From NCBI GenBank assembly GCA_951406725.2, contig OX597818.1, positions 4,340,001 to 4,404,000 on the forward strand: a stretch of DNA of 64,000 bases, in the 5' to 3' direction. Below, one piece after another: positions 32,921 through 33,369 of the stretch. A program made the position numbers and the translations under genes. The notes under the pieces were generated by a model. It made no database searches. It had not been told where the DNA came from and saw nothing but the letters and a program-made list of their open reading frames with translations. Each line of letters begins with the position of its first letter. The stretch's first letter is position 1. The stretch is from Octopus vulgaris. Lineage: Eukaryota.

Positions 32921-33369
32921 ATATTACTGGTGAATTGAAGAAATGGAGCTGAACGAAGATTGAACAGAAATCGTTTTATTTCATTCTACACGCGTTTCGA
33001 AAGGCACAATTTACCAAAATCCGATTGAATAATTAGACCATATTGTGTCTTTCTCTTCAGGAAGAAATAGGAAATCCGGTGGAAAAAACAAAAACAGAAC
33101 AGAGGCGGAGCAAAACAAATCGAACTAGGCTCCTAAGAGCCCATGGCCAAACCATATAAAACGATTTCTGTTCAATCTTCGTTCAGCTCCATTTCTTCAA
33201 TTCACCAGTAATATTAAAATTCAATTATCCGCACCAACGCACGGTTGCAACACCATATGGTTGTACCTCCAACCGTGCTGTCTTCTGCTGTGATTTTTGC
33301 TACCAAGGTATCGGTTAAACTTTTGATTAATCTGCTACAAGATTATTCATCTTTCTATTTCACATAATA
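32921..33369 (+). mobile_element. foldback mini-PLE, family A, with HHR on the inverted segment
   Basis: Arms 32921-32979 / 33156-33214, HHR-containing spacer, tail shared with 6639-6790, (TA)n flanks. Confidence 0.85.
32977..33070 (-). ncRNA. hammerhead ribozyme, canonical core
   Basis: Minus: TATTTCTTC-CTGAAGA-GAAAGACACAAT...ATTGTGCCTTTC-GAAAC-GCGT-GTA-GAATGAAATA; stem II 11/12 bp. Confidence 0.88.

Follow-up and report, generated by a model that had tools for sequence, protein, structure and literature searches.

A head-to-head Penelope-like insertion in Octopus vulgaris with an arm end beside a predicted hammerhead cleavage site

Introduction

Penelope-like elements (PLEs) that bear an endonuclease, known as EN+ PLEs and comprising the Penelope/Poseidon, Neptune, Nematis and Hydra clades, are described as inserting in 5′-truncated form with an inverted copy at the 5′ end, a tail at one end only and a hammerhead ribozyme near the 3′ end, with (TA)n repeats serving as the target in Hydra and Naiad families (PMC8557442). 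A head-to-head, one-tail architecture is thus already known for PLEs. What the hammerhead does in EN+ PLEs has been described as unclear (PMC8557442), and there is no settled account of how the head-to-head inversions arise (PMC3846280); palindromes at the inverted junctions were explained by Arkhipova (2013) through self-priming on antisense RNA (PMC3846280).

The hammerheads of PLEs are variants with a type-I core, a G10.1-C11.1 pair, a large helix II and a palindromic helix III, and are predicted to work as dimers through that helix (PMC4209133). In Schistosoma, pairs of such hammerheads on opposite strands, 100–700 bp apart, have been noted (PMC4209133).

Biochemical data come from PAc, a Poseidon element of Anolis, which in vitro nicks and extends both strands of its target and whose RNA carries two internal RT start sites that bound the tail (PMC11167929). 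In vitro, PAc with a mutated ribozyme inserts normally and uses mainly uncut RNA as its substrate, and none of the RNA-seq reads terminates at the cut (Frangieh et al., PMC11167929). Inverted products are not discussed in the main text consulted. A further parallel is offered by R2 elements with an HDV-like ribozyme, for which the ribozyme cut defines the template's 5′ end, run-off adds untemplated bases and the junction forms through microhomology (PMC3774820). R2 differs from the octopus case described here in its ribozyme, enzyme and target, and in that it joins a cDNA to target DNA rather than to a second cDNA.

Here we describe a small foldback from Octopus vulgaris, termed A1, found in a 64-kb stretch of contig OX597818.1 (the window). 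Positions in ribozyme-bearing copies are counted from the predicted ribozyme cut, with +1 as the first base after it.

Anatomy of the foldback

A1 occupies 32921–33369 and has long (TA)n tracts on either side. Its parts are as follows.

31072..32920, no strand: left flank and target, a (TA)n-rich microsatellite, read from the sequence
32921..33155, minus strand: inverted arm without tail, 235 nt, spanning −169 to +66 relative to the predicted cut
33155..33156, no strand: head-to-head junction, where the −169 end meets the +8 end
33156..33214, plus strand: sense arm, duplicated part (+8 to +66)
33215..33369, plus strand: tail, 155 nt, present on the sense arm only, with predicted stem-loops and terminating in (TA)n

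The two arms are exact reverse complements over 59 of 59 nt (32921–32979 against 33156–33214). The sense arm begins at 33156, which corresponds to +8, such that exactly seven nucleotides after the predicted cut are absent, and its end is sharp, the preceding base being a mismatch to the template. A first-pass annotation, made from the letters alone, had proposed this anatomy, including the tail on the sense arm and the 7-nt offset, and its coordinates and offset proved accurate. No microhomology was found at the junction on the side where it could be tested, and no target-site duplication is discernible within the (TA)n repeat around A1. A 4-bp hairpin at the junction was equalled at 22 of 120 control positions; it is therefore not unusual, and was rejected as a signal of snap-back. 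Taken alone, the 7-nt offset also falls within chance (roughly 8–21 of 200–300 possible positions), and it carries weight only because of the other copies described below.

The surrounding DNA is rich in other elements. LINE-type RT/endonuclease copies lie at 35384–38525, 42518–45761, 53548–56641, 19077–20547 and 29096–31071, the last of which is interrupted by the long TA tract that contains A1. Two tRNA-like SINE copies (34262–34430 and 5762–5918, 90% alike) also sit in TA tracts. Inverted repeats of 245 bp (60455–60699 and 62259–62503, 97.6% identical) enclose a 330-bp palindrome at 61935–62262 and have no ribozyme match; the whole structure, 60455–62503, is likely to consist of nested DNA-transposon derivatives.

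A PLE-type hammerhead in A1

The inverted arm of A1 carries a predicted ribozyme.

32977..33069, minus strand: type-I hammerhead of the PLE variant, with predicted cleavage activity, from a descriptor scan with shuffles, a constrained fold and a dimer cofold
32986..32987, minus strand: predicted self-cleavage site, after GUA

The position of the cut is a prediction, obtained by applying the hammerhead consensus to the fold. The type-I core (CUGANGA, GAAA and NUH) and its three helices are present, with the 5′ strand of helix I at 33069–33061, CUGAAGA at 33060–33054, helix II at 33053–32999, GAAA at 32998–32995 and the 3′ strand of helix I at 32986–32977, preceded by a self-complementary helix III. 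Helix I consists of 3+6 bp with one bulge. The helix II domain is 55 nt long (−11.4 kcal/mol) and is closed by G10.1-C11.1, and helix III has 2 bp with a self-complementary 8-mer, followed by GUA. These features match the PLE hammerhead variants, which share the type-I core, the G10.1-C11.1 pair, the large helix II and the palindromic helix III (PMC4209133). The same type of hammerhead is found in coding PLE copies of the window, at 16065 and 18384.

A strict hammerhead descriptor yields eight matches in the window, compared with none in 29 of 30 shuffles and a single match in the other, and the constrained hammerhead fold of A1 (−14.5 kcal/mol) lies close to the minimum free energy of −15.4 kcal/mol. 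When folded freely, the 111-nt ribozyme region is no more stable than shuffles (z 0.46). With its long helix II insert, the A1 motif matched none of the Rfam hammerhead families at the gathering score, and none at E≤10; what Rfam did return were miRNA models of hairpin shape that scored below threshold. In the Craig 2021 supplement, where line breaks could conceal a match, none of six helix-III motif strings taken from the window was found. The ribozyme had first been described as a well-paired canonical hammerhead. Its core is indeed canonical, but the architecture is that of PLEs, with a weak palindromic helix III and a long helix II, and differs from the 6-bp/4-bp form of canonical hammerheads (Cervera and De la Pena 2014).

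Cofolding of two A1 ribozyme copies gives a predicted dimer form with an intermolecular 8-bp helix III, and helix III is self-complementary in all six motif variants tested. The energy gain of the dimer is −12.5, versus a shuffle mean of −8.0 (sd 2.8), and 16 of 200 shuffles do as well; since this is not significant, the energy gain was rejected as evidence for dimerization.

Assignment to Penelope-like elements

A1 is almost certainly a 5′-truncated PLE insertion. It combines an inverted 5′-truncated copy by its 5′ end, a tail at one end and a type-I hammerhead, as reported for EN+ PLEs (PMC8557442), and its insertion in (TA)n together with a hammerhead is a trait of the Hydra clade, though not unique to it. 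A1 departs from EN+ PLEs in its tail, which measures 155 nt versus the usual 30–40 nt (PMC8557442), and, unlike the coding copies of these elements, it has no reading frame. Its non-coding sequence matches none of 39 PLE-type proteins, and no reading frame of its family was found in the 64-kb window. EN+ PLEs encode a telomerase-related RT and a GIY-YIG endonuclease within a single frame, and proteins of the Hydra clade are marked by DKT, RWK and CxCX5C motifs, with no CCHH.

Two other classes were rejected. Non-LTR retrozymes are arrayed as head-to-tail tandem repeats, every unit of which contains a hammerhead, whereas the copies here are dispersed and head-to-head. A MITE or foldback DNA transposon should carry, at each end, terminal inverted repeats passed on by a master copy. 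In the foldbacks here, a tail extends past the repeat on one side, each copy has its own center, and copy-specific variants are common to both arms.

Two coding PLE copies lie in the window.

9780..16436, plus strand: near full-length PLE (E1) with a 1.7-kb inverted arm, a hammerhead in both arms and a tail; arm ends at −1486 and −4593
16489..18441: 5′-truncated PLE (F1) with RT and GIY-YIG frames and no inverted arm

The RT and endonuclease frames of E1 (11462–13847) are broken by frameshifts. The segment at 11462–12382 has 39 homologues, the best named of which are from Argonauta hians (42–48% identity), and no Pfam match. In a comparison by eye, E1 as a whole (9780–16436) resembles Hydra-1_Obim. 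Between the RT thumb and the endonuclease, at 12513–13300, E1 encodes an asparagine-rich stretch reminiscent of the N-rich inserts seen in rotifer PLEs; its ribozyme is preceded by 2.2 kb of 3′ region. In F1, the segment at 16489–17734 matches GIY-YIG at E 3.5e-5 (above the cut-off) and RVT_1 at E 9e-4 (below it), and the hammerhead at 18384 carries a compensatory U3-A8 core variant. Fragments at 4679–4983 and 18495–18799, 99% identical, encode the endonuclease end of another PLE family; both begin at the same base after (TA)n, with no visible ribozyme end in either.

A sister copy with both arms at the predicted cut

A1 belongs to a small family, family A, whose only other full member in the window is A2, 94.9% identical to A1 over 215 nt in a blast search of A1 against the window.

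6499..6791, plus strand: A2 foldback within (TA)n; inverted arm to 6566, center at 6567–6569, sense arm from 6570

Both arms of A2 start at +1, immediately after the predicted cut. The chance of such ends is 0.002–0.005, assuming that the ends are coupled and uniform over 200–500 nt. The 3-nt center matches neither continuation of the template and offers no priming homology. Strictly, the perfect palindrome extends one base further and leaves a 1-nt center, and because both arms have U at base −1, the source may have been a GUU variant, with the ends at −1. The center would be either an extra untemplated A on each cDNA plus one base, or the product of such a variant. A2 indicates that a cDNA is able to halt at the scissile bond and acquire filler, much as R2 cDNAs behave on ribozyme-cut RNA (PMC3774820).

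Differences between arms within a copy number 0/59 in A1 and 0/67 in A2, compared with 3/59 between the two copies. Thus, each foldback appears to have been built anew from a single source, unless its arms were later homogenized. The two copies have common 3′ ends within about 3 nt, the tail-less arm ending at about +66 to +69 and the tail at +221, such that the A2 tail has the same 3′ end as the A1 tail (33215–33369). Neither A1 nor A2 contains a direct pLTR or partial tandem, which is optional in truncated PLE copies.

Foldbacks elsewhere in the window

The window holds seven foldbacks in 64 kb, belonging to five families and sharing one polarity, with the tail on one side and an arm end that is fixed within each family. 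Besides A1, A2 and E1, three carry ribozymes.

2961..3475, minus strand: C1, foldback of a related family, family C; tail-bearing arm with hammerhead, cut at 3170/3169; mirror case of A1
From 3420 (+8, no mismatch) or from 3416 (+4, a single mismatch), plus strand: tail-less short arm of C1
26643..27050, plus strand: B1, symmetric foldback of family B with a hammerhead in both arms and both ends at −61
33500..33895, plus strand: B2, second copy of family B; arms 94% alike, ends about −56 to −63 as read from the alignment

C1 is old, with arms 92.6% alike, G10.1 missing and an ambiguous junction, and its arms end at +4 to +8 and at about −230. A 7-bp hairpin at its junction was found at 0 of 120 control positions. 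The middle of C1 (3316–3419) contains this hairpin and a weak plus-strand likeness to the PLE RT thumb; considered as a PLE RT fragment, 3316–3415 on the plus strand matched one of 39 proteins at E 0.004 with a profile score of −1.6 bits, and a database search of it found no match among 20 candidates. If real, the likeness would mean that the template was switched close to the cut, with a jump into the reading frame.

B1 and B2 are 90% alike and independent, and their four 5′ ends fall within about 10 nt of one another, near −60. This cluster suggests that the RNA has another discrete 5′ end, which may be a transcription start or a second processing site. The center of B1 is an A-run followed by a T-run, as untemplated A tails would give. 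The arms of E1 (1.7 and 5 kb) are 99.7–99.8% alike, marking a young copy, and they show that unequal arms are normal.

D1 (3914–4106) is a small symmetric foldback in TA-rich DNA that looks like A2, with 26-nt arms beyond an AT-rich end, a 2-nt center and a tail of about 120 nt. At 26240–26617, upstream of a TA tract, lies a weak hammerhead-like match with its cut at 26351, a helix I of 2 bp and a long loop II; it may stem from an old PLE end or have arisen by chance.

Three of the six ribozyme-bearing foldbacks are cut-proximal: A1 (+8/−169), A2 (+1/+1) and C1. The other three (B1, B2 and E1) end elsewhere and read through the ribozyme on both arms. Leaving aside A1, which was selected for the property, two of five have an end within +1 to +8 (P 0.01–0.05), and a window of ±10 gives P 0.06–0.26 for the same two of five; both window and null were chosen after the data had been seen, and the sample is six foldbacks from 64 kb. 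The census left out D1, which has no ribozyme reference, a third family B copy (52762–52912) that is too diverged, and F1 and the match at 26351, which have no inverted arm.

A model for the origin of A1

On balance we favor the view that A1 is an insertion primed on both nicked strands of (TA)n, whose two cDNAs were joined at their 3′ ends, the short cDNA having ended at the ribozyme cut. The components of this reading differ in strength. It is likely that two cDNAs were joined in A1. From the arm ends of its copies, ribozyme-cleaved RNA is also a likely real template in family A. That the +8 end of A1 itself reflects the cut is favored only slightly.

The joining of two cDNAs is supported by the relative length of the arms. 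In A1 the tail-less arm is the longer one, and thus no one cDNA contains the tail together with the segment from −169 to +7, such that snap-back of one cDNA cannot give A1. This leaves the joining of two cDNAs or a shortening of the sense arm by later deletion. LINE-1 elements also produce inverted 5′ segments, through twin priming, in which both target strands prime cDNA. The segments made by LINE-1 cover different parts of one RNA, whereas the arms of A1 duplicate the same region, and therefore two template copies or re-use of one are needed.

The course of events might have been as follows. The GIY-YIG endonuclease of an autonomous relative would nick both target strands. One nick, which in A1 would be the right one, would prime at the downstream start site to give the tail-bearing cDNA, and the other, on the left in A1, would prime at the upstream start site to give the tail-less cDNA. 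Each cDNA would then extend until its template physically ended on the 5′ side, or truncate earlier. In A2 both cDNAs would have run off at the cut and gained untemplated bases, and in A1 one would have run off at or near the cut while the other read through an uncut ribozyme. The two cDNA 3′ ends would finally anneal or be end-joined, with about 7 nt trimmed from the short A1 cDNA, and each cDNA would be copied to yield a duplex. Ends are trimmed during microhomology joining by polymerase theta, and by comparison the 7-nt loss in A1 and C1 would fit such trimming. The templates could be two RNAs or two pLTR copies within one tandem transcript, which, if cut at its first ribozyme, would present one cut copy and one uncut copy on the same RNA; A2 would need two cut ends, template re-use or hairpin capping.

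The model resembles the behavior of PAc, with its AT-rich target, protein-assisted hammerhead and protein predicted to be a dimer (PMC11167929). The first-pass annotation had proposed that two cDNA segments were joined, one from uncleaved and one from cleaved RNA. The joining agrees with what we infer from the longer tail-less arm and from the two-strand extension of PAc (PMC11167929). Its second part, a cDNA from cleaved RNA, draws mainly on A2, with both arms at +1, and weakly on C1, with its short arm at +4 to +8, while the +8 end of A1 could also stem from a later deletion or from stalling in helix I. Against ends defined by the cut, half of the six foldbacks are not cut-proximal, and the family B ends near −60 are not explained by the cut. 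In PAc, moreover, the ribozyme is dispensable and cut ends are absent from RNA-seq (PMC11167929), in contrast to the genomic ends at the predicted cut in A1 and A2.

Alternative explanations

Long palindromes are unstable and suffer one-sided deletions of their centers. A1 might therefore have been inserted as a longer symmetric palindrome, with its apex at or beyond −169, and have lost the center of its sense arm later, placing the end at +8 by chance. Symmetric apexes are common in the window (B1, A2 and D1), and microhomology deletions are reported in rotifer PLEs (PMC3846280). Nonetheless, we consider this history rather unlikely, given that the arms of A1 are still identical, that the testable side of its junction lacks microhomology and that the arms of E1, a young and near full-length copy, are unequal as well; this history would moreover leave the ends of A2 and C1 unexplained.

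Ends could also cluster without cleavage if the RT stalled inside the folded ribozyme on uncut RNA. Helix I covers +1 to +10, and because +8 lies within it, stalling is possible for A1; the distal 6 bp have pair probabilities of 0.72–0.79, and PLE ribozymes cut poorly in vitro (PMC4209133). We nonetheless regard stalling as quite improbable, since both arms of A2 stop with filler at the scissile bond, after helix I would have been fully unwound, and the ribozyme is read through in about eight other arms.

Rotifer PLEs have palindromic junctions at their inversions, for which self-priming on an antisense transcript has been proposed (PMC3846280). That process, or the snapping back of one cDNA, would suit the symmetric copies, the copies with a longer tail-bearing arm (C1 and E1) and the 7-bp hairpin at the C1 junction. 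A1, with its longer tail-less arm, needs a second template or a deletion in addition, and A2 is also hard to accommodate, in that nothing would make an antisense template fold back just where a sense-strand ribozyme cuts, and the A2 center lacks priming homology. Such an origin is accordingly very unlikely. Finally, although perfect arms adjoin low-complexity DNA, the window contains a 100-N gap and such repeats trouble assemblies (PMC8557442), a fold-back chimera of assembly or library beside the long (TA)n tracts is extremely improbable and was rejected, because seven foldbacks of five families share one polarity and the arms of B2 and C1 have diverged by 6–7%, which is impossible for a chimera.

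Returning to joined cDNAs, a more elaborate arrangement may be considered, in which PLE integration would run through a symmetric complex: a dimeric protein and a dimeric hammerhead would keep together two RNAs of the element, each of which is primed on one strand of the target, with their cleavage states recorded as arm lengths. If so, A2 would be cut/cut, A1 and C1 cut/uncut, and B and E uncut/uncut, and the ribozyme would set where cDNAs end and meet. An integration complex with a dimeric hammerhead had been suggested for A1 at the outset, and the predicted dimer fold is compatible with it. The energy gain discussed above lends it no support, both arms run through the ribozyme in three of the six foldbacks, and a single tandem-pLTR transcript would suffice. 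We therefore consider such a complex doubtful.

Implications

For an inversion apex at the ribozyme cut we found no counterpart among EN+ PLEs in the literature searched, which likewise contains no report of PLE arm ends coinciding with the cut, although older reviews and Fig. S2 of Frangieh et al., which deals with genomic ends, may bear on this point. Arm ends at the ribozyme cut are thus, apparently, an unreported property of a known kind of element, seen in a small sample. They suggest that ribozyme-cleaved RNA is likely used as a template by family A elements in living cells, which would be a new role for the PLE hammerhead. The role proposed earlier is the cutting of precursors for circularization (PMC4209133), whereas here the cut seems to set the ends at which cDNAs run off.

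Copies with arms ending at the cut would preserve, as in vivo fossils, templates that the ribozyme had cleaved, and those with a longer tail-less arm separate two-cDNA from fold-back models. With seven foldbacks in 64 kb, a genome of this kind should hold thousands of such junctions, and both questions thereby become countable.
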